The notes: generated by a model from the sequence alone, not told the origin. A DNA stretch of 64,000 nt from a bacterium (GCA_027310625.1 DAIDAM010000003.1:67278-131277); one strand, 5' to 3'. Positions 5,865 to 63,617 are shown, counted from the stretch's first letter. Translations and numbers: made by a program.

Positions 5865-6186
5865 ACATCAGCAATAATCAGCTCCTATCAGCATTTATCA
5901 GCGTTCGTGTCATGAATGAACTTTTTGCGCTGATTTATGCCGATTTTTGCCGATTTATGCTGATGCGGCCGAATAACATTAAAGATTGTAAGCGATGGCG
6001 GTTTTTTTGGCAAATTTAGCATGTTCAAAACTTCACCACTTCACCACCAATTTCCTAAGCCTACCATCGCCACATAAAAAATCTATTCCAATATTCTTAA
6101 GAATACTAGAATAGATTTTCGCAACTGCTTTCCGAAAAATTGCCCGTCAGTAGATTTCTGTATCACCATAGGGTAAACTTAACCAC

Positions 6187-10489: not shown

Positions 10490-11992
10490 CTATCTGATTG
10501 TGCCCCCGCCGAGCATTTCGTATTTCTCTGGTTTCTGGTCTCTGGTCTCTGGTCTCTTATAGTAGAACACAGCCGACTGACCTGCGGCGACGAACTTCTG
10601 CCCCTGCTCAAAGATGAGCAGCGCGGATTTGCGCGGATTAGACGCTGATTTGCGCGGATTTTTATCTGCGTTTATCTGCATATCGTCTGCGGGCATCAGC
10701 GTTGCAGGCGCGAGCGGTTGTCTGTACCTCACCCGCGCCAACACCTTATACCCCTTATTCGCACGAATTAGGGGTATAGTTTCCGAGTTGATGAAATTCA
10801 CATCGTGGAGTTTAATTTCTTTTCTGTACAACGCCGAATTGTCGCTCCCTTCTGCTACCACAAGCGTATTTGTTTCAACGTTTTTCTCAGCAACATAAAG
10901 CGGCTTGAAATCCGTTTTCTGCATAAGTCCGCGTTCTGTCTGTGTAAGTCCGCGATTGGTCATGCCAATATGTCTCTGCCCAATGGTGTAAAAATGCGCG
11001 CCGGAATGCCTGCCGATTTCTTCTCCGGCGGTATTCAAAACCGCGCCTTCTCTCGCGGGAAGATAACCGCCCAAAAACTCGGCGAGCGTAACTTTGCCGA
11101 GAAAGCAAATTCCCTGCGAATCTTTTTTCTCCGCCGTAGGCAAACCGGCTTTTCTCGCCATCGCCCGCACTTCTGACTTCAAATAATTGCCTATCGGGAA
11201 AAGGCAGTGTTGCAATTGCTCTTGCGTCAACGTCCAGAGAAAATATGACTGGTCTTTTTGCGCGTCACGCGCAGCGTATAGTTTATAACCATAACTCGAA
11301 TCTACGAATGTGCGCGAATTTGGCGAATTTAAAAAACTTTTATATTCGTTATATTCGCGCGAATTCGCGATATTCGAATTACGCATAAGCCGCACGTAGT
11401 GCCCGGTCGCCACGTAAATCCCTGCCTGCCGGCAGGCAGGCGCTCCCACGGACAGCGCTTTTTCCAAAAAGAGCCCGAACTTAATTTCCTTGTTGCACAT
11501 CACGTCCGGGTTGGGAGTAATGCCGCGGCGGTAACCGTCAACCATATAAGCGACGACTTTCTTTTTATATTCCTCCTCGAAATCCCAGATATAAAAAGGG
11601 ATTTCGAGTTTGCCGGCGACGCGGCGTGCGTCCTCGGCGTCTCTTTCCGCCTGACATTCATCGTCAAAATTTCCGCGCCCATCCGCGTTGAAATCCGCGT
11701 TAATCCGCGTGTTGGACGAAGTCCAACATTTCATAAAAACGCCGACGACATCGTAGCCATGGTTTTTAAGAAGCATGGCGGCGACTGAGGAATCAACCCC
11801 TCCACTCATTGCTACGAATACCTTTTTTTTACAAGCAAAGCCGCCAGCCTGCCTGCCATAGCCCTCGCCTTGCCGAAGCCGACGGCGAAGCGCAGGTTGG
11901 CGAAGGCGGGACATCCCCGCAAAAACTTTTTCTTTCCGTTTCTTCATGCGCCTATTTTTACATCGTCTTCTCCAATATATCAAATAAAACAA
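10490..11992 (-). CDS. mnmA: tRNA-specific 2-thiouridylase MnmA, with several in-frame repeat-derived insertions and a repeat-derived N-terminal extension
   Basis: SGGVDSS PP-loop, conserved MnmA core; low-complexity inserts (NPRKSASNPRKSAL, ETRDQKPEKYE). Confidence 0.85.
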   Translation of the reverse strand: MFYLIYWRRRCKNRRMKKRKEKVFAGMSRLRQPALRRRLRQGEGYGRQAGGFACKKKVFVAMSGGVDSSVAAMLLKNHGYDVVGVFMKCWTSSNTRINADFNADGRGNFDDECQAERDAEDARRVAGKLEIPFYIWDFEEEYKKKVVAYMVDGYRRGITPNPDVMCNKEIKFGLFLEKALSVGAPACRQAGIYVATGHYVRLMRNSNIANSREYNEYKSFLNSPNSRTFVDSSYGYKLYAARDAQKDQSYFLWTLTQEQLQHCLFPIGNYLKSEVRAMARKAGLPTAEKKDSQGICFLGKVTLAEFLGGYLPAREGAVLNTAGEEIGRHSGAHFYTIGQRHIGMTNRGLTQTERGLMQKTDFKPLYVAEKNVETNTLVVAEGSDNSALYRKEIKLHDVNFINSETIPLIRANKGYKVLARVRYRQPLAPATLMPADDMQINADKNPRKSASNPRKSALLIFEQGQKFVAAGQSAVFYYKRPETRDQKPEKYEMLGGGTIR

Positions 11993-14640: not shown

Positions 14641-14752
14641 GTTTTTGTACTCATCAGTATAAATCAGTTTTAATCCGCATTAATCAGCGTTATGGAACTT
14701 TGAAACGCCGATATATGCTGATTTTGGCTGATCAATGCTGATTTATATCGGT
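14641..14752. repeat. intergenic palindromic element, ATCAGC/GCTGAT family
   Basis: ATCAGC-rich arm followed by GCTGAT-rich arm. Confidence 0.6.
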
Positions 14753-17635: not shown

Positions 17636-17735
17636 TATTATCGCACGAATTTACGAATCTTTACGAACATACGAATTTACAGTAAGTAAAATTTAATCTA
17701 TTCGTAAGTTCGTAATTTATTCGCTTATTCGTGCG
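17636..17735. repeat. intergenic palindromic element, ACGAATTTACGAA…TTCGTAAGTTCGT family
   Basis: long imperfect inverted repeat. Confidence 0.6.
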
Positions 17736-17739
17736 ATGC

Positions 17740-18465: not shown

Positions 18466-18684
18466 TTACTTTTGTTTCTCGTTTATAAAAGTCAAAGCTC
18501 TCGCTATGTCCTTTTTGAGCGCTTTGATATCTTTCACGTTTTTCACCTTGCCTGCAGCCAAATCAAATTTCATCGCTCTCAATTTTTCGTCCGCATCGCT
18601 TACAAATTTTTTCAGCTCCGCGACCGGCTTCGTTTTAAGTTCGATTATTTCTTTTCTTTTCATTGTTTTGTGTTTTATCCGCAT
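18466..18684 (-). CDS. rpmC: 50S ribosomal protein L29
   Basis: L29 signature. Confidence 0.9.
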
Positions 18685-18765
18685 TAATCAGTTTAAATCA
18701 GCATCTGTCAGCGTTCAGGGCTCTACAAAAGCAATCGCCGCTGATTTATGCCGATTTTTGCGGAT
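18685..18765. repeat. intergenic palindromic element, ATCAGC/GCTGAT family
   Basis: ttaatcagtttaaatcagcatctgtcagcg … cgctgatttatgccgat. Confidence 0.6.
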
Positions 18766-19185: not shown

Positions 19186-19195
19186 TTTTGATGTA

Positions 19196-19278
19196 TCGCG
19201 CGAATTTACGAATTTTTACGAACATACGAATTTACGGTGAGCATAATAGAAGTTATTCGTAAGTTCGTAATTCATTCG
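19196..19278. repeat. intergenic palindromic element, ACGAATTT family
   Basis: inverted repeat nearly identical to 17636-17735. Confidence 0.6.
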
Positions 19279-19279
19279 C

Positions 19280-19963
19280 TTATTCGTGCGATTTTATTCT
19301 TTTAAACACTTCCCCTTTGTATATCCAGACCTTGATTCCTATCGTCCCGTAAGTCGTAAAAGCAGTGGCTTGGCCGTAATCAATGTCGGCGCGGAGATTT
19401 TGAAGAGGCAGGGCTCCTCTTTTGAGGGACTCTTCTCTTGCTATTTCGGCTCCGTTTAATCTTCCTGACAAAGTTATTTTGACGCCCTTCACTTCTTTAT
19501 TTTGCGCAACCTGCTCCAGATATTTTTTCATTGCTCTTCTGAAAGGAAAACGCTTTTCCAGATCCCAGGCGATTTGCTGGGCAACATAAGGGGCGGCAAT
19601 TTCGGATTTTTTCAACTCCTCCACATTAACACTCAGGCTAACACGGTTTTTAACTTTTCTTTCTTTTCTAATCGTTTCCTCAAGTTCCTTTGTAAAGTCC
19701 TCTATCCCTTTTCCGCCGCGCCCGATTATAAGGCCCGGCCTTGCGGCTTTTATCACGACTTTGAGATTGTTCGTTGTACGCTCTATTTCAATTGACGCAA
19801 TCCCCGCCAACCCGAATTTTTTTCTGATGAGTTTTCTTATAATCTCATCTTCGGCAAGATACTTCGCATACGAACGCCCCCCTTTGCCGTGCAAAAACCA
19901 GCGGACCGGCCAGTCCTTTATTATGCCTATGCGAAGCGATTGTGGATTTATTTTCTGTCCCAT
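19280..19963 (-). CDS. rpsC: 30S ribosomal protein S3; the upstream 22 codons of the ORF lie in a MITE and are probably not translated
   Basis: S3 KH/C-terminal domains; start MGQKINP. Confidence 0.92.
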   Translation of the reverse strand: MGQKINPQSLRIGIIKDWPVRWFLHGKGGRSYAKYLAEDEIIRKLIRKKFGLAGIASIEIERTTNNLKVVIKAARPGLIIGRGGKGIEDFTKELEETIRKERKVKNRVSLSVNVEELKKSEIAAPYVAQQIAWDLEKRFPFRRAMKKYLEQVAQNKEVKGVKITLSGRLNGAEIAREESLKRGALPLQNLRADIDYGQATAFTTYGTIGIKVWIYKGEVFKRIKSHE

Positions 19964-20705: not shown

Positions 20706-21059
20706 TTATGCTGTTTTCTTTGTCTCCGCAGGCGCTGCCGGTTGAACAGCGGTTTCGGCTTTTTGCTCAAGCTCCCTTTGTATTCTCCCTCCGTGCTTCA
20801 CGAATTTCCTCGTGGGGGCGAACTCGCCGAGGCGGTATCCAACCATGTCTTCGCTGACTTTCACTTCCACAAAATTCTTTCCGTTGTGCACCGCAAACGT
20901 ATATCCGACCATTTCCGGAGAAATCTCCGAAGAGCGCGACCACGTTTTAATCGGCGTTCCCTCGCCGGGTTTCCCGCGCGATATCTTCTTCAATATGTCA
21001 GGCGCCACATAGGGCGGTTTTTTTGATGATCTGGACATCTCTTTTGCTTTTATCGGCAT
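20706..21059 (-). CDS. rpsS: 30S ribosomal protein S19
   Basis: S19 signature. Confidence 0.92.
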
Positions 21060-21142
21060 AAATCAGCTATCATCCGCATCTATCAGCGTAGTTAAGGTTG
21101 AACGCTGATTTATGCTGATTCTGCCGATAGACGCTGATGTAT
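21060..21142. repeat. intergenic palindromic element, ATCAGC/GCTGAT family
   Basis: inverted ATCAGC…GCTGAT arms. Confidence 0.6.
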
Positions 21143-23821: not shown

Positions 23822-23900
23822 CTTTTTTATCGCTCGAATAAGCGAATATTACGAATTTACGAATTCGTATGTTCGTAAAAATTCGTAAATTCGCGCGATA
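23822..23900. repeat. intergenic palindromic element, ACGAATTT family
   Basis: cgaataagcgaatattacgaatttacgaattcgtatgttcgtaaaaattcgtaaattcg. Confidence 0.6.
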
Positions 23901-25026: not shown

Positions 25027-26226
25027 TTACTTGATTATCTTGGTAACCACTCCGGCTCCCACCGTTTTGCCTCCTTCACGGATGGCGAACCTCTGCTTTT
25101 CTTCAAGAGCGACGGGTGAAATAAGTTTCACGCTGACGTTGACGGTGTCTCCCGGCATAACCATCTCCGTTCCCTGCGGCAAAGCGACGTCACCCGTAAC
25201 ATCCGTCGTTCTGATATAAAATTGCGGTTTGTAACCGGTGAAGAACGGCGTATGTCTTCCGCCTTCCTCCTTGGAAAGCACGTAGACCTCCGCTTCAAAG
25301 TCCGTGTGAGGAGTAACGCTCCCCGGTTTTGCGACAACCTGTCCCCTTTCAACGTCCTCTTTCTTAAGACCGCGGAGGAGAACTCCGATGTTGTCGCCAG
25401 CAAGACCCTCGTCAAGAATTTTATTGAACATTTCAATTCCGGTGACGACGGTTTTCTGCGTCGGCTTCAAGCCGATTATCTCAACTTCTTCGTTGACTTT
25501 CACTTTCCCGCGCTCCGCCCTGCCGGTAACAACCGTGCCGCGCCCTTCTATGGAGAAAACATCTTCAACGGGCATAAGAAAAGGTTTATCAAGCTCTCTC
25601 ACCGGCTCCGGAATGTAATCGTCGAGCGCTTTGACGAGGTCGAGAACCGGCTTGGCGTCCGGGTCGTCGGCTGATTTCACGTTGAGCGCTTTCAAAGCCG
25701 AGCCGCGGATGACCGGGGTGTTGTCGCCGTCAAAATTGTATTTCTTCAAAAGTTCGCGCACTTCCGACTCCACAAGGTCAATAAGTTCCTTGTCGTCCAC
25801 CATATCGCATTTGTTGAGAAACACGACGATTCTCGGAACGCCGACTTGGTATGCAAGAAGAATGTGCTCCCGCGTCTGGGGCATCGGGCCGTCGGTGGCG
25901 GCGACGACAAGAATCGCGCCGTCCATCTGCGCCGCGCCGGTAATCATGTTCTTGATGTAGTCCGCGTGACCGGGCGCGTCAATGTGCGCGTAGTGCCTTT
26001 TGTCCGATTCGTATTCCGAGTGGTGAAGAGCAATGGTTATGCCGCGCGCTTTTTCCTCCGGCGCGTTGTCAATCTGATCAACGCCTTCCTCCTTTTTCGC
26101 AAGCCCCTTCATGAAAAGGACGTGCGTCATCGCCGCGGTCAAAGTCGTCTTGCCGTGGTCAACGTGACCGATTGTTCCGACGTTTACGTGCGGCTTGCCT
26201 CTTACGAATTTTTCTTTTTCAGCCAT
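25027..26226 (-). CDS. tuf: elongation factor Tu
   Basis: [19 protein letters not shown] GTPase motifs. Confidence 0.97.
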
Positions 26227-26401: not shown

Positions 26402-28528
26402 TCACTTCTTTTTGCCCTCGATAATCAGCTGCGCCACGTTTTGCGGCGCTTGCTCATATCTATCAAACTCCATATTGAATGAACCCCTGCCCTGCGTCAG
26501 CGAGCGGAGCGAAGTCGCATAGCCGAACATTTCCGAAAGCGGAACTTTGGCGTCTATAATTTTCACGTTTGTCCTGTCGCCTATCGTTTCTATCTTTCCT
26601 CTCCTTGAGTTTATATCTCCCGTGACTTCGCCGAGGAAGTTTTGCGGAATTATCACTTGCACTTTCATTATCGGTTCGAGAATCACCGGTTTCGCGCGCT
26701 TCGCCGCCTCCTGAAAAGCGATTGAGCCGGCGATTTTGAAAGCCGCTTCCGAAGAGTCAACTTCGTGAAAAGAACCGTCGTAGAGGGCGACTTCCGCGTC
26801 AACCATCGGATAATGCGCAAGCACTCCTTTATCAAGCGCCTCTCTCACGCCTTTCTCAACGGCGGGAATGAACTCGTTCGGGATTATCCCTCCCCTTATT
26901 TCGTTCTCAAAAACGAATCCCTTTCCTCTTTCAAGCGGCTTCACGCGCAGCCATACGTGACCGTATTGCCCGCGTCCGCCCGATTGTCTGATGTATTTTC
27001 CTTCCGCCTCCGCTTCGCCGGTTATCGTTTCCTTGTAAGCGACCTGCGGACGCCCGACGTTCGCTTCCACGCTGAATTCTCTTTTCATTCTGTCAACGAT
27101 TATTTCAAGGTGAAGCTCGCCCATTCCGGAAATAATCGTTTCGCCGGTTTCGGGGTCGCCGGCAACGCGGAAAGTCGGGTCTTCGTCGGCGAGCCGGCGA
27201 AGCGCGATGCCCATTTTTTCCTGGTCGGCTTTCGTCTTCGGCTCAATTCTTATGCCGATGACCGGCTCGGGGAAAACAATCTTTTCAAGAACAACCGGGG
27301 AGTCGGGACTGCAAAGCGTGTCGCCGGTGCCGGTGTTTTTGAGACCGACTATCGCGGCTATCTCGCCCGCGTAAACCTCTTCCACTTCTTCCCGCTGGTT
27401 GGCGTGCATCCGCACAATTCTTCCGACGCGCTCCTGCTCGCCTTTCGTCGCGTTCAGAACGTAAGAACCGCGTTTCAGAACGCCCGCGTAATTTCTGAAA
27501 TAAGTCAAACTGCCCACGTAAGGGTCGTTGGCGATTTTGAAAGCAAGCGCCGTAAACGGTTCGGCGTCGTCGGGTTTTCTTGAAATTTCCTCTCCTGTTT
27601 TCGGATTACTTCCCTTAACCGGAGGCAAATCGAGCGGCGAAGGAAGATAATCAACGACCGCGTCCAGAACCAGCTGCACTCCTTTGTTTTTGAGCGCCGA
27701 GCCCGTGAACACCGGAACAATTTTGTTCGCTATCACGGCCTTTCGAAGCGCGCGCCGCAATTCATCGAGCGTGATTTCTTTTTCGGCGAGATATTTTTCC
27801 ATTACGGCATTGTCGGAGTCCGCAATCGCTTCGATAAGTTCGTGACGATACTTTTTAACATCCGCTTTCATCTCTTCGGGAACGGGGATTTCAACGATGC
27901 GTTCCCCTTTATCGCCGTGGAATTCAAAAGCTTTTTCCTGCAGTAAATCAACGACGCCGCGGAAAGTCGATTCAATTCCGAGCGGCAACTGCACGCGATA
28001 AGCGTGCGGCGTAAGGCGTTCCCTTATTGAGGCAAAGCTGCGTTCAAAGCTCGCGCCCATGCGGTCAAGCTTGTTGATGAAGCAAATTCGCGGAACATTG
28101 TATTCGTCGGCGTAGCGCCAGTTTGTCTCGGACTGCGGCTCGACGCCGGCGACGCCGTCAAAAACGACGACCGCGCCGTCAAGAACGCGGAGCGAGCGCT
28201 TGACCTCCACGGTGAAATCAATGTGTCCGGGAGTGTCAATGAGATTTATCCTGTGCTCGTATTCTTTCCTGGTGCCTGGTGCCTGGTTCCTGGTCACTGC
28301 ATAGGTCGGCGTCCAGAAGGCCGTCGTCGCCGCGGCCGTAATCGTTATGCCGCGCTCTCTTTCCTGCTCCATCCAGTCCATCACCGTGTCGCCCTCGTGA
28401 ACCTCGCCGATTTTATACGAAACGCCGGTGTAAAAAAGCACGCGCTCGGAAACGGTAGTTTTCCCAGCATCTATATGAGCAATAATTCCTATATTACGAG
28501 TTTTTTCGATCGGATAAGTTCGCGGCAT
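26402..28528 (-). CDS. fusA: elongation factor G, with a short in-frame heptamer-repeat insertion near the N-terminus ([12 protein letters not shown])
   Basis: EF-G GTPase and domains II-V; CTGGTGC x4 tract at 28268-28300. Confidence 0.96.
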
Positions 28529-29003
28529 TGATTTATCGCACGAATTTACGAATCTTTACGAACATACGAATTATTATTAACAATTCTCTTAAAAATAACA
28601 CCTTTAGACGTAAAATTTGCTAGGATGGCGAGTGGCAAATTGCTTGCTTTGAGATAGTTAAAAATCTGCTCCGCGTTATGACGAGAAAACGCCACACCCT
28701 TTTTAATCTCAATTATTACTTTTTCTTCAACTAAAAAATCGCATCTTTGTCTGCCAACTGCTTTACCATGAAACATAACGGGCAACAAAACTTCTCGCCT
28801 AAATTTTAATCCTGCATCCTCGAATGCTAATGCCACTGCGCGTTGATAATAATTTTCCGAGTAACCAGAGCCGAGTGCATTGCTGACATCGAATAGCGTT
28901 CCAACAATTTTGTAGCTCAGCTCGGGCTCAATAATGTCGCTCCTTCGCAACTTTCTCTCGCTCATAATGATTCGTAAGTTCGTAATATTCGCTTATTCGC
29001 GCG
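28529..29003. repeat. ACGAATTT-family palindromic element whose two arms (28529-28560 and 28966-29003) are separated by an inserted GxxExxY gene
   Basis: left arm atcgcacgaatttacgaatctttacgaacatacgaatt; right arm attcgtaagttcgtaatattcgcttattcgcgcgat. Confidence 0.6.
28546..28965 (-). CDS. GxxExxY family protein (PD-(D/E)xK-like; the family is associated with 23S rRNA intervening sequences)
   Basis: [21 protein letters not shown]…[13 protein letters not shown] motif pattern of the GxxExxY family. Confidence 0.75.
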
Positions 29004-29004
29004 A

Positions 29005-29472
29005 TCAGCGGGCAAAGTGCGCGAACGCCCTGTTGGCTTCCGCCTGCCGGTGCATATCCAGCTTCTTTTTCACCGCGTCTCCTTCATTTTTGGCGGCGGC
29101 AATTATTTCAGCGGCAAGTTTTTCATGCATCGGTTTTCCTTTTTTCGAGCGCGCGGCGTTGACAATCCAGCGCACACCGAGGATGAAACGGCGTTCGGGA
29201 CGCACCTCGCGCGGAATCTGGTAGTTCGCGCCTCCGACACGCTTTGAAAAAACTTCCAGCATCGGCGATGCGTTTGTAAGCGCCTGCTCAAAAACGCTGA
29301 CTGGCTCTTTTTTTGTTTCTTTTTTTATTTTCTCAAAAGCGCCGTAAACCGCCTTTCGCGCCGCGCTTCTCTTCCCTTCCCTCATCACATAATTTATCAG
29401 GCGCCCCACATCAACTCGCCCGTAAAGCGAATCCGGCTGATGATGTTTTTTGTAAACTCGTTTCTTTCTCAT
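29005..29472 (-). CDS. rpsG: 30S ribosomal protein S7
   Basis: S7 signature. Confidence 0.93.
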   Translation of the reverse strand: MRKKRVYKKHHQPDSLYGRVDVGRLINYVMREGKRSAARKAVYGAFEKIKKETKKEPVSVFEQALTNASPMLEVFSKRVGGANYQIPREVRPERRFILGVRWIVNAARSKKGKPMHEKLAAEIIAAAKNEGDAVKKKLDMHRQAEANRAFAHFAR

Positions 29473-29550
29473 TTAAGTATCGCACGAATTTACGAATTTT
29501 TACGAACATACGAATTCGTAAGTTCGTAATATTCGCTTATTCGAGCGATT
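29473..29550. repeat. intergenic palindromic element, ACGAATTT family
   Basis: cgcacgaatttacgaatttttacgaacatacgaattcgtaagttcgtaatattcgcttattcgagcg. Confidence 0.6.
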
Positions 29551-29985
29551 TTATCCTTTCGGTCTTTTTGCCCCATATTTCGACCGCTGCTGCTTCCTGT
29601 TTTCCACTCCGGTCGTATCCAAAACGCCGCGGACGATGTGATATCTGATTCCCGGCAGGTCCTTCACGCGTCCGCCGCGAATCATCACAATCGAGTGTTC
29701 CTGAAGCGTGTGCCCCTCGCCCGGAATGTAAGCGGTGACTTCCATGCCGTTGGTCAGCCGCACGCGGGCTACTTTCCGAAGAGCGGAGTTCGGTTTCTTG
29801 GGCGTGGTCGTGAAGACCTTCAAACAAACGCCGCGCTTGAACGGCGAACCGGAATAAACCGGACGATTTTCAAGCGTGTTGAAATAGTACGACAAAGCCG
29901 GCGATTTTGTTTTCGCTTTTATTTTCTTCCTTCCTTTTTTTATGAGTTGTCTGATTGTGGGCATGATAATAAGTAAATTAGACAT
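29551..29985 (-). CDS. rpsL: 30S ribosomal protein S12; probable start MPTIRQL at 29962
   Basis: S12 signature (PNSALRKV…). Confidence 0.93.
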
Positions 29986-37838: not shown

Positions 37839-37860
37839 CTAAGGAAGTCCGACTTCCTAA
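37839..37860. repeat. REP-like palindrome (ctaaggaagtccgacttcctaa)
   Basis: member of the TTAGGAAGTCGGACTTCCTAA family. Confidence 0.7.
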
Positions 37861-37876
37861 ATGTTATAATTACAGC

Positions 37877-38578
37877 ATGACGAGACCGCGAATAATTCGG
37901 AACGAAATTTACCATGTCCTTAACCGTGGCGTAGATAAGCGAGCAATTTTCTCAGACGATAACGACCGCCTGCGGTTTATTCATAACCTCTTTGAGTTTA
38001 ACGACACCGCACCTGCACCCAATCTCGCCTACCATCTCGGCAAAAAACAATCTAAGGAAGTCGGACTTCCTAAGATTGAGAGGAGACGGCGGGAACTTTT
38101 GGTGGAAATTCTCGCGTTTTGCATGATGAAAAATCACTATCATCTTTTGGTCAGGCCGAAGGCTGATAATTTTCTAACGTTATTTATGAGAAAACTGGGA
38201 ACAGGGTACACCAATTATTTTAATCAAAAATATAAGCGGAGCGGAGCGCTTTTCCAAGGGAAATACAAAGTGGTGCACATTAACAATGATAGACATTTTA
38301 TTCATCTCCCCTACTACATTCACTTTAATCCATTAGACGGCTTTGCTCCGAGTTGGAGAGAAAAGGAAATAAAGGACCACAAAAAAGCAATGGAATTTTT
38401 GGAGAACTATCGCTGGAGCAGTTTTCCGGACTATATCGGCAGGAAAAATTTTCCTTCAATCACGCAAAGAGAATTTTTACTAAAGTTTTTCGGCGGCCCG
38501 GAGGAATACAAACGCAAAACGACAGAATGGCTAAAAGCAATCGATTTCGAGGCAATACACGACGTTGCACTAGAATAA
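37877..38578 (+). CDS. REP-associated tyrosine transposase (RAYT, IS200-like Y1 transposase); contains an internal REP copy at 38052-38074
   Basis: HxH motif (NHYHLLV) and catalytic Tyr region (LPYYIHFNP); flanked by REP palindromes. Confidence 0.8.
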   Translation: MTRPRIIRNEIYHVLNRGVDKRAIFSDDNDRLRFIHNLFEFNDTAPAPNLAYHLGKKQSKEVGLPKIERRRRELLVEILAFCMMKNHYHLLVRPKADNFLTLFMRKLGTGYTNYFNQKYKRSGALFQGKYKVVHINNDRHFIHLPYYIHFNPLDGFAPSWREKEIKDHKKAMEFLENYRWSSFPDYIGRKNFPSITQREFLLKFFGGPEEYKRKTTEWLKAIDFEAIHDVALE

Positions 38579-38585
38579 TTAATAA

Positions 38586-38606
38586 TTAGGAAGTCGGACT
38601 TCCTAA
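38586..38606. repeat. REP palindrome TTAGGAAGTCGGACTTCCTAA (perfect)
   Basis: perfect 21-bp palindrome. Confidence 0.8.
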
Positions 38607-38623
38607 GAAAAAAACAAGCGGCG

Positions 38624-38878
38624 TTAGTCGTAAATGTCTTTGCGATGGCCAATGGCAAAAAATACCGCTTTATCGTCTCTAAAATAAAAAAGCGCCCGAT
38701 AGCGGCGTGTGATACGAAAAGAAAACACGCCGGGAAGTTCTTTGTTCCTTTTGGTGTGCAATCTTGGGTCGAGCCAATTTTTCTTGAAGATGTTTTCCTG
38801 CCGATTGAAAAGTTTCCTTATTTCCGAGGGTAATTTACCTAAATCACTGACAAAATCCGGTGTCTTATGGACAACCAT
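38624..38878 (-). CDS. RelE/ParE family toxin
   Basis: …FRITRRYRALFYFRDDKAVFFAIGHRKDIY fits the RelE/ParE C-terminal pattern. Confidence 0.7.
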   Translation of the reverse strand: MVVHKTPDFVSDLGKLPSEIRKLFNRQENIFKKNWLDPRLHTKRNKELPGVFSFRITRRYRALFYFRDDKAVFFAIGHRKDIYD

Positions 38879-38900
38879 TTTTGGTTTTTTAATGCCTGAC

Positions 38901-39089
38901 TCAGGAAGATTTTACGCTCTTGAGATAATTTTTCCTGATTTGAGAAGAGTTCTTATATTCTTTCAAACTTTCTTCAGGAATCAAAAGCAAAAACTTTCCG
39001 AGCTGGTCGCGGATAGCCCTGATTTCAACCAAAAGGTTCTTCAAGACAATGCCCTGCTCTCTATTTTCAGTTGTAGTTTTAGTGGTCAT
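38901..39089 (-). CDS. putative antitoxin for the downstream RelE/ParE toxin
   Basis: 62-aa ORF immediately upstream of the toxin. Confidence 0.4.
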   Translation of the reverse strand: MTTKTTTENREQGIVLKNLLVEIRAIRDQLGKFLLLIPEESLKEYKNSSQIRKNYLKSVKSS

Positions 39090-39184
39090 AGTGATATGGT
39101 AGCAAAACTACAAACGTACAGCAAGTTTTTCTGCTACCATTATATCACAATTGTTGCTTAATGGTAACGGGTAATTATTTGTGG

Positions 39185-39206
39185 CTTAGGAAGTCGGACT
39201 TCCTGA
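39185..39206. repeat. REP palindrome copy
   Basis: cttaggaagtcggacttcctga. Confidence 0.75.
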
Positions 39207-39209
39207 ATA

Positions 39210-39458
39210 TCATCTCGGATGTTTCATTATCGTTAAAATTCTGTAAGCGTCTTTCTCGATTGTAAAATAAAATCTATAGCTCCTGCTGATTCGCGCCTGC
39301 CAAACATTTTCTGCTTCATCGTATTTCTTGGCGCGTAGCGAGGGATGCATAAAATTCTTTGAAAGCAAGGAGAACTGCTTATCGGCTGCTTTCTGCAGAT
39401 TTTTGGGCAAGCCGTTGTAATCGCGAACAGCCCTTTCTGAAAAACTTAACCTCATCAT
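39210..39458 (-). CDS. RelE/ParE family toxin
   Basis: …WQARISRSYRFYFTIEKDAYRILTIMKHPR. Confidence 0.7.
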   Translation of the reverse strand: MMRLSFSERAVRDYNGLPKNLQKAADKQFSLLSKNFMHPSLRAKKYDEAENVWQARISRSYRFYFTIEKDAYRILTIMKHPR

Positions 39459-44621: not shown

Positions 44622-44744
44622 ATTTTAATTTTTTTATAAGCCCGTTATGCGAACCTTTAAGGGTAATTTTACAATATGGAGCGGGAAAGAGATAAAGGGA
44701 GTTATTCACAACCGCCGAAGAACTTAGAACTTGGAGCTTGGAGC

Positions 44745-45170
44745 TTAGGGCTTGGAATTCGGTGTTTTTTTATGGAGCTTGGCGCGGAGAGCTTGAATTT
44801 GTCTCATCAAAACAAGATAGCGGTTTCGCAAATTGTCATGTTCCTGTTCTGTGACATACTCTAATTTAAATGCCAAAGTAAGCGCGGTCAGCACTTCGTT
44901 AATCGAAGTTGCCGCCATCATAAGAAAATGCAGAAACTCTCTTGTTCCCCTCCCGCTTCCCTCCGCTATGTTGAAAGACACAGAAGATGCGGCTCTTCGC
45001 AGTTGGCTCGTCAACCCAAAAAGTTCGCCTTTCGGAAATTTCGAAGTAGTTTTATAAACCTCCAGCGCCAATTCCATACTTTCTTGCCAAATTCGCAATT
45101 TTTCATAATTTGGAGCAGAGTCCTTTAGACTCAAGCTTGGGTCTTGGTTCTTGGAACTTAGTTCACTCAT
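44745..45170 (-). CDS. four-helix-bundle protein (TIGR02436-type)
   Basis: LRIWQESMELALEVYK…NIAEGSGRGTREFLHFLMMAATSINEV; flanked by CTTGGAA-type heptamer repeats. Confidence 0.8.
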   Translation of the reverse strand: MSELSSKNQDPSLSLKDSAPNYEKLRIWQESMELALEVYKTTSKFPKGELFGLTSQLRRAASSVSFNIAEGSGRGTREFLHFLMMAATSINEVLTALTLAFKLEYVTEQEHDNLRNRYLVLMRQIQALRAKLHKKTPNSKP

Positions 45171-45271
45171 TATTTAATTATTTAATTTTTAGTGTTGCAT
45201 TTGGACAAGTTTCAACTTCAAAAACAAATTTCCAAGTTCCAAGCTCTAAGTTCCAAGTTCCAAGCTCCGCT

Positions 45272-46123
45272 TCAGTAAATCGTTCTCCAAGAGTAAGCGT
45301 TGGATGAGTCCTTGGCGCAAACCGTTACGGCATCTTTTGTTCCGGAAGCCGACTGCGTGACCCAGAAGGCACCCCTTTGCGAGGTGTCGCAAGTCGGCTG
45401 AGCGACCGTAGTATTGAGCCGCAAGCCGCCGTTCACCTCCAGAGTTTGTCCGGGACTGGAAACGCCGATGCCCACGTTCGAACCGCTGAAGTAAATTATG
45501 TCGTTTATTGACTGCCATATTTGCGACGAAGCGCCGATTTTGTAGGTGTTGGAAGTCGCGGGGACGACGTTGGAGTCAAAGGTTGCCGCGCCCACGCGCG
45601 CGACAGAAATGCTGAGCGACTGGAGGAACGACTGCTTAATATTCGTCGCGTTGTAGGACATCGTGAAATTGACGTTCACGCTGTCACGCCCGCCGGGGTT
45701 CACGCGCTTCGTGAAAGAAAGGTCGGAGACAATCACTTTGTTTGACGTCAGCGGCTGTTCCGTTCCGCTGTCGGTTTGCTTGAGATAAACCGTTCCGCCA
45801 GTCATATAAATGTATGTCGGGTCAACTGTGGAGGAAGACATCCGGAGTTTTAGTGTCGTTGACGCGGCGTCCGAAGCCATTTCAATCAGCGCCGAGGAAT
45901 TGACGTAGTATTGTATCGTGTCCAAAAGAAGCTGGCTTTGCTGGTTGACTTCGGCAGCGGCGTTTTGCCTCGTCTGCACCTGCACGGAGGAAACAAGCAG
46001 CGTGAGAAAAGTAATCGCGACGATGGAAAAAATGGCGGAGAAAATCAGGAGCTCAATGATGGTGAATCCGCGGGCAGAACTTAGGACTTGGAACTTGGAA
46101 CTTAGCGAATTTCTGAAGTGCAT
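45272..46123 (-). CDS. type IV pilin-like protein (prepilin N-terminal methylation motif GFTIIELLI) with a C-terminal NVGIGVSSPGQTLEV motif shared with the 39994-41952 protein
   Basis: class III signal peptide; shared fibre motif. Confidence 0.65.
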   Translation of the reverse strand: MHFRNSLSSKFQVLSSARGFTIIELLIFSAIFSIVAITFLTLLVSSVQVQTRQNAAAEVNQQSQLLLDTIQYYVNSSALIEMASDAASTTLKLRMSSSTVDPTYIYMTGGTVYLKQTDSGTEQPLTSNKVIVSDLSFTKRVNPGGRDSVNVNFTMSYNATNIKQSFLQSLSISVARVGAATFDSNVVPATSNTYKIGASSQIWQSINDIIYFSGSNVGIGVSSPGQTLEVNGGLRLNTTVAQPTCDTSQRGAFWVTQSASGTKDAVTVCAKDSSNAYSWRTIY

Positions 46124-46191: not shown

Positions 46192-46384
46192 GGCCCCATC
46201 GTCTAACGGTCAGGACATCGGCTTTTTTCACCCCGCACCAAATCCTAGGGCCCTGTCGTCTAGTCTGGTCTAGGACACGAGCTTTTCAAGCTCGGTACAC
46301 GGGTTCGAATCCCGTCGGGGCTGCACAAAATTTGGTGCGGGGCAAGAGCCGGTAACCGGGGTTCGACTCCCCGTGGGGCTGCCA
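46192..46384 (+). tRNA. interrupted tRNA-like gene. 5' part at 46192-46230; 3' part at 46343-46384 (T-arm TTCGACT, acceptor, G73, CCA encoded). A ~112-nt insert lies in the anticodon loop. D-arm is Glu/Gln-like; anticodon unresolved.
   Basis: acceptor ggcccca/tggggct, D-stem gtc/gac, anticodon stem tcggc/gccgg, T-stem cgggg/ccccg; insert contains a 9-bp helix ccccgcacc/ggtgcgggg. Confidence 0.5.
46249..46323 (+). tRNA. tRNA-Glu (anticodon TTC), complete, nested within the insert of the 46192-46384 tRNA-like gene
   Basis: cloverleaf closely parallel to E. coli tRNA-Glu (gtc tag…gac D-arm; stem cgagc/gctcg with loop ttttcaa; T-loop ttcgaat; G73). Confidence 0.7.
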
Positions 46385-46385
46385 A

Positions 46386-48944
46386 ATGTATCGCTTTTTA
46401 GAAATTTTTCCCGGAGCGCTTTCGTGGCTGACTCTTATCTTACTTGTTTCTCTTTCCCGCTACGCGCCGGCGTTCGTCGCCGTTTTCATCATACTTTTTG
46501 ACATCTACTGGCTTTTGAAAACGATTTATCTCTCGCTGCATCTCCGCTCAACTTTTTCGGTTATGAAAAAAAACCTGAAGGTGAACTGGCTCAATGAGCT
46601 GAAGGCACTGCCGCATAATCCCAATGGCCCGAATAGAATCCAAATGCCCCGAATTATAGAAAAGGATCTCTCTTATAAACTAAGCGGGGTTTTCTTCAAA
46701 GTTCATAACCAACTCGGCAGGTTCTGCAGAGAGCGTCAATATGGCGATGCCGTCGCAAAGGAACTTGAATCCCTCGGCGTAAATTTTCAGCGCGAAGTTG
46801 CCGTTGCGGTCGCCGGGCGAAAATCCAATTTCGTAGATTTTGTCGTTGAAAGCAAAATCGCAATAGAACTGAAGACGAAAGACATAATTGACAAAGAAGA
46901 TTATTTCCAACTTCAAAGATACCTTAAAGCGCTGGGATTGGAATTGGGCATAATAGTCAACTTTAGAAGAAAACACTTGAATCCCAAACGCGTTCTCAAT
47001 TCTGACTTCCTTTACAAGTATTCGGCTGATTCAGATACATTCGGCAATTCGGATTATGTGGTCAATAGATATTCGGACAATTCGGATTCATTCGGATATT
47101 CGGATTATGTGAAATCCTGGGAAGACATTTATCATTTGGTGATATTGCCGATGTACCGCGAGCCGTACGAGGTCGTGAAAGGAAGTTTTGAAAGCATATC
47201 TAAAGGAAACTATCCGCTGGAAAAGTTAATTGTCGTCCTGGCGACGGAAGAACGCGCCGGCGCCGAAGCGAGGAAAACGGCTGAGAAAATCAGGCGCGAG
47301 TTCGGCGGCAAATTTTTCAAGTTTTTGATTACCACGCACCCCGCGAATCTCCCCGGCGAAATTCCCGGCAAGGGTTCCAACGAAACCTGGGCGGCGAAAG
47401 AGGCGAAAAGATTAATCATTGACCCACTGGTCAATGCGCAGACCTACGCAGACAACACGCAGACCGACGCAGAAAACGATTTTCTGTATCCAGACCTGAC
47501 ATATGAAATCAGAGGTGCGATATTTTCCATTAAGAAAAAGCTCGGCCTCGGACACAAAGAAGTTGTTTATCAAAAAGCACTGGAAGAGGAATTTAATCGA
47601 CTAGGTTTGAATTTCGAAAAAGAAAAAACGGTGGATATTGCATATAATAACAAAAAAGTTGGTGTCTACCGCCCAGATTTTGTAATTGAGGATAAAATTA
47701 TTTTGGAACTGAAGGCATTACCATTTATGGGCAAATATGAAAAAAGGCAAGTTTGGCAGTATTTAAAAGGAACGGAATATAAACTAGCTATGTTGGTAAA
47801 CTTCGGCGGTAGCGATATTCGCATAGATAGAATAGTTTACGACACAGCTCGCGCAAGTCAGCGTAAGTCTGCGTTAAGTCAGCGAGAGTCAGCGCTGAAA
47901 TATGAAAATGTTTTAGTGTCGGTTTTCGACATTGACACACAGATATTTCCGGAGTATTTCGGGCGCCTCACATATGTCTTTTTGAAATCCGAAGACAAAT
48001 TGCAGGCGATTTACCAGCCGATACCGCTTTTCATAAATAACATCTACGACGCGCCGGCGCTCGCGCGCGTGATTTCCTTTTCAAGCACCTTCTGGCAGAT
48101 GATGCAGCAGTCGCGGCCGGAACGGCTGACGTCTTTTTCGTCGCAGTCAATCCCCTTGCGGGCGCTCATTGACATCGGCTACTGGCACAAAAACGTCGTC
48201 TCCGAGGACTCGCGGATTTTCTGGCAGTGCTATCTCCGCTATCACGGGAACTTCCGCGTCGAACCGCTTTTTTACCCGGTTTCGATGGACGCCAACGCCG
48301 CGCCGACATTTTGGAGAACGCTCAAAAATAATTACTTGCAGCACCGCCGCTGGGCCTGGGGCTGCGAAAACATTCCCTACTTGCTCTGCGGCAAACATAA
48401 TCCGAATCCACGAATGCATCCGAATAACACGAATAGGAGTCCAGATAATAAATTAGATTCGGAACATTCGGATAGATTCGGGGATTCGGATTATGCGGAG
48501 GGTTTCCTCCACAACAAAAAAATCCCTCTCCGCAAAAAGCTCTACTGGTCGTTCAATGTAATTGAAGGATTCCATTCCTGGGCGACGAACGCGCTGATAA
48601 TTTTCGCTCTCGGCTGGCTGCCCGTTCTTTTGGGCGGAGAAGGTTTCGGGATTTCCATTTTGTCGCGGAGCCTGCCTTCGATTACAAGATTCATCATTCA
48701 ACTCTCGATGGTCGGAGTCGCCACCGCCGCTTTCTTCAGCATTCTTCTTCTGCCGCCGCGAAAAGAACCTCTCGAATGGCATCAGTATATTTGGTATCTC
48801 CTCCAATGGCTTCTTCTGCCCGCGACACTCATAATTTTCGGGTCCATCCCCGCGCTCGAGGCGCAAACGCGGCTGATGGTCGGCGGAAAATGGCGGCTCG
48901 GATTCTGGCCGACGCCGAAAACGAGAACCAATAATAGAAGCTAG
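46386..48944 (+). CDS. processive family-2 glycosyltransferase (cellulose-synthase-like; GKGxN, DxD, Q(H)RRW motifs) carrying two in-frame GxxExxY domain insertions (~46644-47000 and ~47481-47840) plus heptamer-repeat tracts
   Basis: GT2 motifs VILPMYREP, GKGSNETWAAKEA, VFDIDTQ, QHRRWAWG; inserted segments each align with the free-standing GxxExxY gene at 28546. Confidence 0.8.
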   Translation: MYRFLEIFPGALSWLTLILLVSLSRYAPAFVAVFIILFDIYWLLKTIYLSLHLRSTFSVMKKNLKVNWLNELKALPHNPNGPNRIQMPRIIEKDLSYKLSGVFFKVHNQLGRFCRERQYGDAVAKELESLGVNFQREVAVAVAGRKSNFVDFVVESKIAIELKTKDIIDKEDYFQLQRYLKALGLELGIIVNFRRKHLNPKRVLNSDFLYKYSADSDTFGNSDYVVNRYSDNSDSFGYSDYVKSWEDIYHLVILPMYREPYEVVKGSFESISKGNYPLEKLIVVLATEERAGAEARKTAEKIRREFGGKFFKFLITTHPANLPGEIPGKGSNETWAAKEAKRLIIDPLVNAQTYADNTQTDAENDFLYPDLTYEIRGAIFSIKKKLGLGHKEVVYQKALEEEFNRLGLNFEKEKTVDIAYNNKKVGVYRPDFVIEDKIILELKALPFMGKYEKRQVWQYLKGTEYKLAMLVNFGGSDIRIDRIVYDTARASQRKSALSQRESALKYENVLVSVFDIDTQIFPEYFGRLTYVFLKSEDKLQAIYQPIPLFINNIYDAPALARVISFSSTFWQMMQQSRPERLTSFSSQSIPLRALIDIGYWHKNVVSEDSRIFWQCYLRYHGNFRVEPLFYPVSMDANAAPTFWRTLKNNYLQHRRWAWGCENIPYLLCGKHNPNPRMHPNNTNRSPDNKLDSEHSDRFGDSDYAEGFLHNKKIPLRKKLYWSFNVIEGFHSWATNALIIFALGWLPVLLGGEGFGISILSRSLPSITRFIIQLSMVGVATAAFFSILLLPPRKEPLEWHQYIWYLLQWLLLPATLIIFGSIPALEAQTRLMVGGKWRLGFWPTPKTRTNNRS
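47000..47115. repeat. ATTCGGA/ATTCGGC heptamer-type repeat tract encoding …DSDTFGNSDYVVNRYSDNSDSFGYSDY… inside the GT2 gene; a similar tract at ~48405-48490
   Basis: period-7 direct repeats. Confidence 0.7.
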
Positions 48945-48959
48945 AATATAGAATTTAGA

Positions 48960-50172
48960 ATGAAAAAAATAAAAACGATTCTCGCGATTGAAACAAGTTG
49001 CGACGAAACGGGGATTGCTCTTGTTGAAGCGAAAGGTGGTTTTGCTTCGCCGAAATTCAGAGTCCTGAAAAACCTCGTGAGTTCACAGATAAAAATTCAC
49101 CGTCCTTTCGGCGGCGTCGTGCCGGGACTCGCCAAGCGCGAACACATCAAGAATCTTCCGAAACTTTTTCGGAAGATTCTTGTAAATTCTAAATCCGGAA
49201 TCCGGAATCCGAAACAAATTTCAAATTTCAAATTTCAAACATTGATTTAATTGCCGTCACCGTCGGTCCCGGGCTTGAACCGGCGCTGTGGACGGGAATA
49301 ACTTTTGCGCAAGAATTGCGCAAGCGACTAGCAACCAGAGACCAGAGACAAGAAAAGAAAATAAAAATTATCGGAGTGAACCATTTAGAAGGACATCTCT
49401 ACAGTTTTCTTTTGCGGCAGCAAAAGAAAACTGCAAATCAGAAATCAGAAATCAGAAACGTAAAAATTTGGGATTTCATGCTTCAAATTTGAGATTTCCA
49501 GCTATTGTTTTGCTGGTGAGCGGCGGACATACGGCTCTTCTCTTGATGAAAAATTTAAGAAAATGGAAAAAACTCGGGGAAACGCGGGATGACGCGGCGG
49601 GCGAAGCATTCGATAAAGTCGCAAGAATGCTCGGCCTCCCCTATCCCGGCGGTCCGGAAATCGAAAAACTGGCGAAAGAAGGTGACGCAGACGCGATAAA
49701 TTTTCCGCGCCCGATGCTCAACCAGAAAAATTACGATTTCAGTTTTTCGGGAATAAAAACGGCGGTATTTTACTATCTTAGAGACCGAATCTCTTACGAA
49801 AATACGAAAACATACGAAAGTACCAAAACGAAAAATAAATTTCGTAATTTCGCGCCGTTTCGTACTTTCGTAAGTAAGGCCGATATCGCCGCTTCGTTTC
49901 AAAAGGCGGTCGTTGAAACACTTGTCAAAAAAGTGGAACGGGCGGCGAAAGAATACGGGGCGTGCTCGCTCATTCTCTGCGGCGGAGTTGCGGCGAACAA
50001 GGTGTTGCGCGAAAATATGCGAAAAGCTGCTCACAAAATAAACGCGGAATTCATCGCGCCGCCGATGGAATACAACAACGATAACGCTGCGATGATTGCG
50101 GCCGCGGGATATTTCGCCTCGCTCCGGAGCAGAAAATTGCCGCTCAAGGCCGACGGCGATTTGAATATATAG
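48960..50172 (+). pseudogene. tsaD: tsaD (tRNA N6-threonylcarbamoyladenosine synthesis, Kae1/YgjD family) split into three reading frames by two -1 frameshifts, each inside a heptamer-repeat tract (49186-49240; 49425-49492)
   Basis: N-terminal ([11 protein letters not shown]…[16 protein letters not shown]) in frame 0; middle ([12 protein letters not shown]…VNHLEGHL) in frame 2; C-terminal (FPAIVLLVSGGHT…DDAAGEAFDKVARMLGLPYPGGP…) in frame 1. Confidence 0.75.
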
Positions 50173-50214
50173 TCATGTTAATCTTAAATTCTCAACAATC
50201 TCAAATTCTCAACT

Positions 50215-50250
50215 TGTTAACATTTTACGCGATCGCGTAAAATGTTAACA
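50215..50250. promoter_or_regulatory. 36-bp perfect palindrome TGTTAACATTTTACGCGATCGCGTAAAATGTTAACA
   Basis: perfect inverted repeat; a second near-identical copy at 50819-50853. Confidence 0.6.
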
Positions 50251-50304
50251 AAATAATAAAACAGCGGCGGTTGACGGACAGCGACGGTTAACGGTGAAAA
50301 AAAG

Positions 50305-50811
50305 TTAAATTATCTCGGCTTCTTTTGCCTCAAAAAATTTAATATATGGGAAAAGTTGAAGTTTTCTCAAAGATTCGACAAATTGTTCCGGCAATGGCGC
50401 CGGTCCAAGCCATAAACTCTTTTGAAGCATCTCGAATCCAAGACATAAAAGCTCGGCTCTCAACCAATCGCGTTTTTTCTTATGTATCTCTGGGACATCA
50501 AAAGAAATGACAATACTTTTGGGATTTCGCTTGGCAGTTTTTTCGCTGTGGGTCGGGAAAAGAGAAATTTTGTTTGCAAAGTATCCGCGCCCGGCTTTTG
50601 TAAGCCGCCATATACCCTTTTTATTTTCTACAAATCCCCTCTTTTTGAGACGTGAAAGTGTAACACGTATCGCAGAATCAGAAGCATCCTCAAAACCGCG
50701 ATAAATTCTACCATCAGAAAAAGGACTTGCACCGCTTAATTTTCTGCGCATCAAACGATAGCCGTCGTGATAACTGAATAAAATAGTCAAGATGTCATCC
50801 GTTAATCCCAT
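50305..50811 (-). CDS. winged-helix regulator-like protein (PaaX-like N-terminal HTH: RVTLSRLKKRGFVENKKGIWRLTKAGRGYF); function unknown
   Basis: wHTH-like segment; gene bracketed by two copies of a 34-36 bp palindrome. Confidence 0.45.
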   Translation of the reverse strand: MGLTDDILTILFSYHDGYRLMRRKLSGASPFSDGRIYRGFEDASDSAIRVTLSRLKKRGFVENKKGIWRLTKAGRGYFANKISLFPTHSEKTAKRNPKSIVISFDVPEIHKKKRDWLRAELLCLGFEMLQKSLWLGPAPLPEQFVESLRKLQLFPYIKFFEAKEAEII

Positions 50812-50818
50812 TTCAAAA

Positions 50819-50853
50819 TATTAACATTTTCAGCGATCGCGTAAAATGTTAAT
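50819..50853. promoter_or_regulatory. second copy of the TTAACATTTT(C/A)(A/C)GCGATCGCGTAAAATGTTAA palindrome
   Basis: near-perfect inverted repeat. Confidence 0.6.
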
Positions 50854-50864
50854 AAAAATTTTCA

Positions 50865-63109: not shown

Positions 63110-63233
63110 GATTTTGATAAATCCTAAATTCGAAATCCGAAATTCTAAACAAATTCGAAATTCTAAATTCAAAACGTGTTTGAAATTTGTGATTTGGGAT
63201 TTGTTTAGTATTTAGAATTTAGTGCTTCGAATT

Positions 63234-63617
63234 TTACTTTAATTCCACCTTGCGTTTCCCGCTGCCGGCGGTCTTTCTCACATTGCCCCTGACGGTTCTT
63301 GAATTTGTTTTTGTCCTCTGGCCGCGGGTCGGCAGATGCTTGACATGCCTCGCTCCGCGGTACGTCTGGAGTTCTTTCAATCGCTGAATATTCCTCCTGA
63401 TTACCTGCCTGAGTTCCCCCTCAATGCGGAAATTCTTTTCTACAAACGTTTTTATGCGGTTTATCTCGTCGGGATTCAAATCCTTGACGCGCTTGTCGGG
63501 ACTGATTTTTGAAGAACCAAGTATGCGCCTGCTGCTCGGCAAACCGATGCCGTAAATATACGTCAGAGATGTTTCGATTCTTTTGTTGTCCGGTATGTTT
63601 ACTCCGAGCAATCTCAT
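63234..63617 (-). CDS. rpsM: 30S ribosomal protein S13
   Basis: S13 signature. Confidence 0.93.
   Translation of the reverse strand: MRLLGVNIPDNKRIETSLTYIYGIGLPSSRRILGSSKISPDKRVKDLNPDEINRIKTFVEKNFRIEGELRQVIRRNIQRLKELQTYRGARHVKHLPTRGQRTKTNSRTVRGNVRKTAGSGKRKVELK

Follow-up and report, generated by a model that had tools for sequence, protein, structure and literature searches.

The str operon of the uncultivated ultrasmall bacterium described here carries rpsL, rpsG, fusA and tuf on the minus strand, identified from their translations and by tblastn to relatives, and a small open reading frame (ORF) of the GxxExxY family lies between rpsG and fusA (Table 1), which agrees with the original prediction that such a gene sits inside this operon between S7 and EF-G. 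A search with ribosomal protein S7 returned only metagenome-assembled genomes of Patescibacteria (Parcubacteria/Paceibacterota-type), the best of them 81% identical. The ORF is enclosed by two inverted arms, with which it makes up a cassette of roughly 470 bp that fills the spacer: the outer base of the upstream arm overlaps the rpsG stop codon (29005-29007), the ATG of the ORF is 4 nt past that arm, and 6 nt separate the end of the downstream arm from the fusA start codon (28526-28528). Inspection of the sequence places the final 8 codons of the ORF (NSYVRKDS) and its TAA stop (28546-28572) in the downstream arm, an overlap of 27 nt that bears out an earlier reading of this gene.

The two arms are jointly a 97% copy of the 71-bp intact palindrome in the next spacer, split centrally, and hence the gene does separate the halves of a palindrome, as had been proposed. 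The similarity might have proved weak on alignment and did not, since the downstream arm matches the left half of the intact palindrome at 38/39 positions and the upstream arm the right half at 35/36. The split point is the exact palindrome centre (ACGAATT, 397 bp, ATTCGT vs ACGAATTCGT), and arm-to-arm complementarity is ~83%, with mismatches identical to those in the intact copy. The arms had been thought to be 420 bp apart, but 420 bp is the length of the ORF, which overlaps one arm, and the actual separation is 397 bp.

Table 1. Coordinates of the str operon genes, the cassette and related elements in the 64-kb window (the whole stretch of DNA that was analysed).
Feature	Position	Strand	Details
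rpsL	29551-29985	-	
Intact gene-less palindrome	29479-29549	.	Zero-length loop, centre ACGAA/TTCGT; fills rpsL-rpsG spacer
rpsG	29005-29472	-	
Upstream arm (gene orientation), ATCGCGCGAATAAGCGAATATTACGAACTTACGAAT	28970-29005	-	Four CGAAT-core units
GxxExxY / PD-(D/E)xK nuclease ORF (predicted)	28546-28965	-	139 aa; profile matches, AlphaFold2 model, homologue alignment
Downstream arm (plus-strand text), ATCGCACGAATTTACGAATCTTTACGAACATACGAATT	28535-28572	-	Units spaced 8, 10, 8 nt
fusA	26402-28528	-	
tuf	25027-26226	-	
Gene-less copy	23829-23899	.	Zero-length loop; orientation opposite to other four; end-motif pair
Gene-less copy, S3-L16 spacer	19195-19292	.	22-nt loop; end-motif pair
Gene-less copy, L14-L24 spacer	17640-17737	.	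22-nt loop; end-motif pair
In-frame GxxExxY element in GT2 glycosyltransferase	46614-47109	+	Arms CATAATCC...GGATTATG, CCGAAT units, right arm twice
Second in-frame GxxExxY element, same gene	47436-47895	+	ACGCAGA-unit arms
In-frame gene-less hairpin, same gene	48396-48495	+	CATAATCC family; orthologues carry a GxxExxY domain there

The palindrome belongs to a family of which the window contains five copies, all but one of them gene-less. Exactly five occurrences each of the end motifs ATCGCNCGAAT and ATTCGNGCGAT were counted in the 64 kb, always as pairs, and the core word ACGAATTTACGAA (≤2 mismatches) occurs 27 times against 4.5 expected, a number reached in 0/100 shuffles. The DNA hairpin of the rpsL-rpsG copy has z = -6.7 against shuffles. 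Recurrence of the family had been recognised correctly, but the list of intact copies missed the one at 23829-23899, and the copy listed from 19196 runs to 19292. Two of the spacers that contain solo hairpins in the window hold a GxxExxY gene in other genomes, namely the L14-L24 spacer (L091, L152) and the S3-L16 spacer (L167), and the solo copies retain the arm asymmetry that encodes the C-terminus of the ORF. In the window all five copies are near-identical; the two examined in L082 (rpsL-rpsG and rpsG-fusA spacers) differ more. Within-genome copies are homogenised. Comparison by eye of the 22-nt solo loops with the ORF ends gave only an unconvincing 6-nt ATTATG match.

Other unit-built hairpin families are present at 5866-5965, 14658-14747, 18677-18765, 21052-21119 and 63119-63234, in ribosomal-protein operon spacers and elsewhere, with units of ATCAGC/GCTGAT or AAATTCGAAAT, and no gene-bearing copy of these was found in the window. 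Nothing relevant on Patescibacteria palindromes or in-frame hairpins was found in the literature searched. Several further genes in the window are linked to repeats. Four TTAGGAAGTCGGACTTCCTAA palindromes flank a RAYT-like Y1 (IS200-type) transposase gene (37877-38578) together with a 150-aa ORF (38709-39161), a separate REP-like system that spans 37839-39210. A four-helix-bundle/23S_rRNA_IVP (Avd-like) gene of 141 aa (PF05635; minus-strand ORF 44745-45170) is contained in an element (44720-45267) with the same architecture as the GxxExxY cassette and outside any rRNA gene, with 55-nt inverted arms (44720-44781 and 45213-45267) of GAACTTGGA/GCTTGGA units; a third arm copy of this type (46077-46103) brackets the neighbouring pilin-like gene (45272-46123). 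Finally, a PaaX/Cas2-like-domain gene (50305-50811, minus) lies between two copies of the 35-nt palindrome TTAACATTTTACGCGATCGCGTAAAATGTTAA (50214-50855).

The GxxExxY nuclease and its arms among relatives

The protein encoded by the ORF matches the profiles TIGR04256 (GxxExxY; 1.9e-30, 105.6 bits, cutoff 35) and PF13366 (PDDEXK_3; 1.9e-29, 102.8 bits, cutoff 22). Its motif residues are G34-E37-Y40, D76 and E86-x-K88, of which E37, Y40, D76, E86 and K88 are invariant in 30 homologues, including both in-frame glycosyltransferase copies, and at least 90% of these homologues share G34. The AlphaFold2 model (pLDDT 91.4) has a PD-(D/E)xK fold with the predicted alpha-beta-beta-beta-alpha-beta core of such nucleases, and its Foldseek matches, to Cas4 SSO0001, lambda exonuclease, a restriction-endonuclease-like protein, Hjc and tRNA splicing endonuclease, are distant (probability 0.97-1.0, TM-score up to 0.52). 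Searches found no PDB relative by sequence and no defence-family match, and in the portions of the literature searched the GxxExxY name occurs only in passing, with no function given. The dN/dS of the ORF is 0.03-0.08 in four family pairs, which points to strong purifying selection with the putative catalytic residues kept.

The arms are a regular companion of the gene. In a metagenome-wide sample, where the gene might have been met without its palindrome, flanking inverted repeats are significant, that is, score above every shuffle, in 60/76 testable homologues. Almost all of the 46 distinct arm pairs consist of (A/T)AC(G/T/A)AAT units, with exactly four units in 72 of the 102 arms of a 51-element set and commonest spacings of 7-8, 10-11 and 7-8 nt. 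Arm similarity rises with protein identity (Spearman 0.42; Mantel 0/999), a correlation that would also arise from simple co-descent, and it is not due to orthologous loci because 206/224 pairs with ≥60% protein identity have unrelated flanks. At the variable unit position, changes on both arms were observed 17 times against 3.4 expected from a shuffle that ignores relatedness.

The clearest single comparison is that of loci L097 and L130, whose proteins are 92% identical in different contexts and whose DNA similarity is bounded by the outer arm ends, ATCA(A/G)CGAAT...ATTCGTTGAT. At a dS of 0.52 their arms are still ~91-98% identical, and the arms are therefore conserved far more than synonymous sites. 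Taken together with the dN/dS values, this indicates that the nuclease and the arm sequence are both under purifying selection, and the constraint on the arms acts on their sequence, beyond pairing alone. These comparisons also show that arms and ORF move as one unit between unrelated sites, and the proposal that the gene module is mobile is upheld by its occurrence with arms in unrelated contexts. Neither at L097/L130 nor at the str site was a consistent target-site duplication found, and no insertion consensus was definable at the sites compared; an overlap of 3 bp (ATT) where the palindrome is split may or may not be a target-site duplication, because the insert itself begins with ATT. Three plasmid GxxExxY genes from outside the Patescibacteria, in Persicobacter (L169), Treponema (L170) and Gemmatirosa (L171), have no clear unit-built inverted arms: the Treponema gene has only an 11-bp inverted repeat, and the Persicobacter gene is flanked on either side by runs of AATCC units in direct orientation. 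The association with arms may be specific to one clade, and we therefore limit our claim to the Patescibacteria clade sampled.

Comparison of the rpsG-fusA spacer across relatives finds it short and empty in most, 6-30 nt without a hairpin, and occupied by a GxxExxY gene with arms in several. The gene is present in 5 of ~78 genome loci, at exactly this position (L002, L014, L028, L045/L050), and in more than 10 metagenome or other loci; the closest protein homologues are also at this site (P0002, 75% identical, L082/L083; P0005, 66%, L084), as are the genes of L106, L114, L119-L121, L124-L126 and L151. In the eight site copies examined at the sequence level (L002, L014, L028, L045/L050, L082, L084) the gene is co-directional with the operon and has inverted arms on both sides. 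The metagenome loci were scored for arms only by a systematic inverted-repeat scan, in which L106 has no significant inverted repeat and the score of L114 is weak. Arm units at the site are ACGAAT (window, L002, L082), ACAAAT (L014, L028) or ACGAAA (L045). Placed among GxxExxY proteins of other contexts, the occupants belong to at least five separate protein clusters, and that of the closest genome (L002) is 75% identical to a protein encoded elsewhere (L096) and only 50% to the window protein. The occupants are thus polyphyletic, and therefore the site has been repeatedly colonised or overwritten. The gene's sporadic presence among relatives at one conserved intergenic position is of the kind expected of free-standing homing endonuclease genes.

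Not every unusual feature near fusA in these genomes belongs to this family. Long rpsG-fusA spacers (0.7-1.25 kb; L004, L035, L053, L060, L073, L074) contain unrelated ORFs instead, and the apparent interruption of fusA in many relatives is an artefact, the second tblastn match being to the GTPase domain of tuf further downstream. In four loci (L021 4469-4700, L031 4560-4753, L037 3355-3533, L055 4932-5195) a short ORF upstream of fusA duplicates the first ~20 fusA codons (MPRQYP..IIAH), followed by ~45 conserved codons (SDASLRSLKPSGFNASATGKLPFPRPLSRIN), and the true fusA start comes after it; this looks like the footprint of another insertion type with a replacement 5' end. In locus L085 (2890-3610) a GxxExxY gene has two tandem left arms on its upstream side, and its downstream side carries an intact hairpin as well as several further left arms and additional right arms, an array that looks like nested or repeated hairpin-into-hairpin insertion.

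Both neighbours are co-directional with the ORF in 21/24 non-redundant loci with clear neighbours, and in none are both opposite. The strongest promoter-like sites in the window precede rpsL and tuf, and no strong promoter match was found directly upstream of the window ORF, with only weak consensus matches near or inside it. Given this co-direction and promoter pattern, the ORF probably depends on host transcription. RNA folding predicts pairing of the two arms over the intervening ORF, in the centroid as well as in the minimum-energy structure. When 30 hairpins were folded as sense and as antisense strands, their energies revealed no consistent bias of the kind that G:U asymmetry produces, and most mismatches between arm units are of kinds other than wobble pairs; neither result supports selection on RNA alone. 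RNA may have a role, though the conservation pattern points elsewhere.

In-frame relatives inside coding genes

An 852-aa ORF in the window (46386-48944, plus strand) contains two GxxExxY domains, and it scores 26.3 bits against the GT2 family PF13632, just under the Pfam cutoff of 27. Removal of three segments leaves 499 aa that align end-to-end with orthologues of ~495 aa at 65-78% identity. All three insertions, two with the gene and one gene-less (Table 1), are in frame, and what would be annotated as an 852-aa GxxExxY protein is a 495-aa glycosyltransferase with three insertions. Cassettes of this type inflate and split gene calls in metagenome-assembled genomes. A second T-arm/acceptor-like stretch (ggggttcgactccccgtggggctgcca, 46324-46385), which adjoins the tRNA at 46249-46323 and precedes the glycosyltransferase ATG, may be a tRNA fragment or duplication.

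Alignment of the glycosyltransferase orthologues reveals three insertion sites in four states: empty, hairpin only, hairpin with GxxExxY, and deletion remnant. The remnants keep the first GxxExxY codons; at site 1 of P0134, MPRIVEKEL is followed directly by the right arm, and P0132 has MRIPRIVEREL at site 3. Gene-less palindromes therefore arise, at least partly, through internal deletion. The RFCRERQYGD subtype with CATAATCC...GGATTATG arms is found at site 1 or at site 3, depending on the orthologue. At site 3 the flanks co-vary with occupancy (CGK...EGFLYDKKIP vs EGFRKDPLIP), even in the close pair P0138/P0139, which may be a hint of co-conversion after cleavage of a gene-less allele.

Unit-built in-frame hairpins are also found at 11296-11367 in a minus-strand ORF (10490-11992; translated ANSREYNEYKSFLNSPNSRTFVDSS) and at 49793-49874 in a plus-strand ORF (49288-50172; translated SYENTKTYESTKTKNKFRNFAPFRTFVS). 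Together with the glycosyltransferase hairpin, these coding-gene solos are open in the host frame and have stops in at least one other frame, whereas most intergenic solos contain stops in every frame. Coding-resident arms are not, as might be supposed, free of stops whatever the frame; most are open in only one or two of three, with the host frame always included. The coding-resident lineages are kept open in the host frame and appear to be translated through.

Comparison with known systems

The 23S rRNA intervening sequence is the closest known counterpart of the cassette. In Coxiella, this sequence combines a 28-bp terminal-repeat stem with tandem GACAGAT heptamers and a loop that encloses an S23p ORF, and it is excised by RNase III; 23S rRNA intervening sequences, which are sporadic in distribution, are regarded as selfish (PMC4990558). 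The cassette resembles those of Leptospira, Coxiella and Salmonella (S23p/four-helix-bundle ORF) in size (~0.4-0.5 kb), in terminal inverted repeats (here 36-38 nt) predicted to form a stem around a small ORF, in the co-orientation of that loop ORF with the host transcript, and in arms made of repeated units, which compare with tandem 7-nt repeats. It differs in residing in an mRNA operon spacer or, for its relatives, a protein-coding frame, rather than in an rRNA helix (there is no rRNA gene in the window), and in its cargo, a PD-(D/E)xK nuclease (PF13366) instead of S23p (PF05635); cutting of the RNase III type would, moreover, harm the in-frame copies here. A survey of Patescibacteria rRNA insertions lists LAGLIDADG, GIY-YIG and 23S_rRNA_IVP, and PDDEXK_3 is absent from it.

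Free-standing homing endonuclease genes are exemplified by the phage T4 seg and mob genes, and a homing endonuclease of the PD-(D/E)xK type exists in I-Ssp6803I. The cassette is like them a small nuclease gene between conserved genes with presence or absence at the site and turnover of occupants, but we know of no such genes with terminal inverted arms or solo derivatives, and cleavage of the empty allele has been demonstrated for them, whereas for the cassette it is a prediction. MITEs and transposons with terminal inverted repeats and subterminal repeated binding sites, for example the Ac/Ds hexamers and Tn7 ends, share with it inverted ends in which a short motif is repeated, the combination of one autonomous copy with many short derivatives that lack the gene, and the coexistence of several families in a genome. 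Unlike such transposons, the cassette has no DDE, serine or tyrosine transposase, only a nuclease of 125-140 aa, and no target-site duplication was found.

The Rickettsia palindromic elements are palindromic repeats in frame in protein-coding genes and are translated through, and the three coding-gene solos of the window resemble them by description; to our knowledge they carry no ORF and have no cognate nuclease. REP/BIME elements with their RAYT are likewise intergenic palindromes multiplied within a genome, but the ACGAAT hairpins are longer, built of units, and do not flank the RAYT-like gene of the window. The element, then, combines traits that are intervening-sequence-like, MITE-like and homing-like.

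Competing explanations and a proposed mechanism

We propose, with somewhat better than even confidence, that the insertion is a selfish nuclease cassette whose ends are two inverted arms of four (A/T)ACGAAT hexamers and whose sole gene is the minimal GxxExxY nuclease. The nuclease would recognise the hexamer arrays, or a cruciform formed by them, and would cut cognate hairpins or empty sites, whereupon recombinational repair with a gene-bearing copy as template and the arms as homology would copy the ORF in. Such repair-copying would spread and homogenise the copies within a genome and turn over the occupants of a spacer. In RNA, the arms would form a ~36-bp stem enclosing the ORF, comparable with that of 23S rRNA intervening sequences. 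The ORF stop codon is located within the distal arm, at a distance of 17 nt from the start of fusA, and ribosomes that translate the ORF would therefore open that stem, keeping rpsG-fusA translation coupled. The most economical mechanism would be nuclease-triggered gene conversion between cognate hairpins, in effect homing into solo copies, and a separate further step would be needed for the cassette to reach new sites. We know of no transposase that consists of a 125-aa nuclease alone, and of no biochemical activity for any GxxExxY protein.

The split palindrome had been taken as direct evidence that the module targets palindromes, which is not supported, given that the arms travel and co-diverge with the gene and some solos are deletion derivatives; it is at least as likely that the palindrome is the cassette's own ends and the solo copies its MITE-like descendants. 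In the corresponding alternative, the palindromes are an independent, pre-existing repeat family and GxxExxY is a homing-type invader that cut the palindrome centre and was copied in. We regard this as unlikely, if deserving of attention: the split exactly at the centre, the solo hairpins in the same three ribosomal-protein spacers that hold the gene in other genomes, the polyphyletic occupants of single spacers and the homogenised within-genome copies, which show recombination between copies, are all as an invader would leave them, but the arms accompany the gene to unrelated sites with similarity ending at the outer arm ends, the solo hairpins with ORF remnants record the opposite direction of change, solos keep the asymmetry encoding the ORF C-terminus, and there is no account of how hairpins reach new sites, coding genes included. 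In a weaker form of the targeting idea, resident solo hairpins may be re-invaded by gene conversion through arm homology, which fits because same-spacer GxxExxY genes are polyphyletic and the five window copies are near-identical, the L082 copies less so.

That the unrelated four-helix-bundle gene uses the same arm design is the reason to consider that the arms may be served by a host or other factor and not by the cargo protein. Carried further, the element would be intervening-sequence-like, with the hairpin essential, either as an RNase III-processed stem or as a DNA hairpin moved by another enzyme (e.g., a Y1/RAYT-type transposase), and the GxxExxY and four-helix-bundle ORFs would be interchangeable cargo without a role in mobility. 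In its favour, RNase III cuts the similarly built Coxiella element (PMC4990558), the window contains a RAYT-like Y1 transposase gene, and the predicted RNA fold has the arms paired. Nevertheless, we consider such an element improbable, as there is no G:U wobble signature favouring the transcribed strand, the hexamer sequence is conserved beyond pairing, a different palindrome flanks the RAYT-like gene, RNase III would destroy the in-frame coding copies, which yet stay open with catalytic residues, and strong purifying selection on the nuclease needs a function. That selection, and the occupation of the site in many genomes, would also suit an ordinary host gene, a small nuclease serving the cell (e.g., in defence or RNA processing) and inherited vertically in the str operon with regulatory hairpins alongside; the empty 6-30 nt spacer of most relatives, the polyphyletic occupants, the same cassette in many unrelated contexts and in frame inside genes, and the absence of a defence-family match make this very hard to credit.

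If the selfish nuclease cassette is the correct explanation, its significance could extend beyond the str operon. Tentatively, and well short of even confidence, we suggest that the GxxExxY cassettes with their hairpin ends, together with, by extension, the four-helix-bundle cassettes of rRNA intervening sequences, may constitute an unrecognised class of bacterial mobile element whose sole enzyme is a minimal PD-(D/E)xK nuclease that recognises the hexamer arrays of its own hairpin ends. Gene conversion set off by the nuclease would be their means of spread; they would settle in operon spacers and, in frame and without splicing (unlike inteins), in protein interiors, and would decay to the palindromic repeats of Patescibacteria. 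PF13366/TIGR04256 is a large family without an assigned function, for which the data propose a concrete role as the enzyme of a tiny hairpin-ended cassette, with the (A/T)ACGAAT array as the predicted DNA substrate of the GxxExxY protein. The data thereby link three puzzles, namely the origin and mobility of rRNA intervening sequences, where the in-frame palindromic repeats of reduced genomes come from and the abundant unit-built palindromes of Patescibacteria. If true, the broader proposal would provide both a function for a large uncharacterised family and an origin for intervening sequences.
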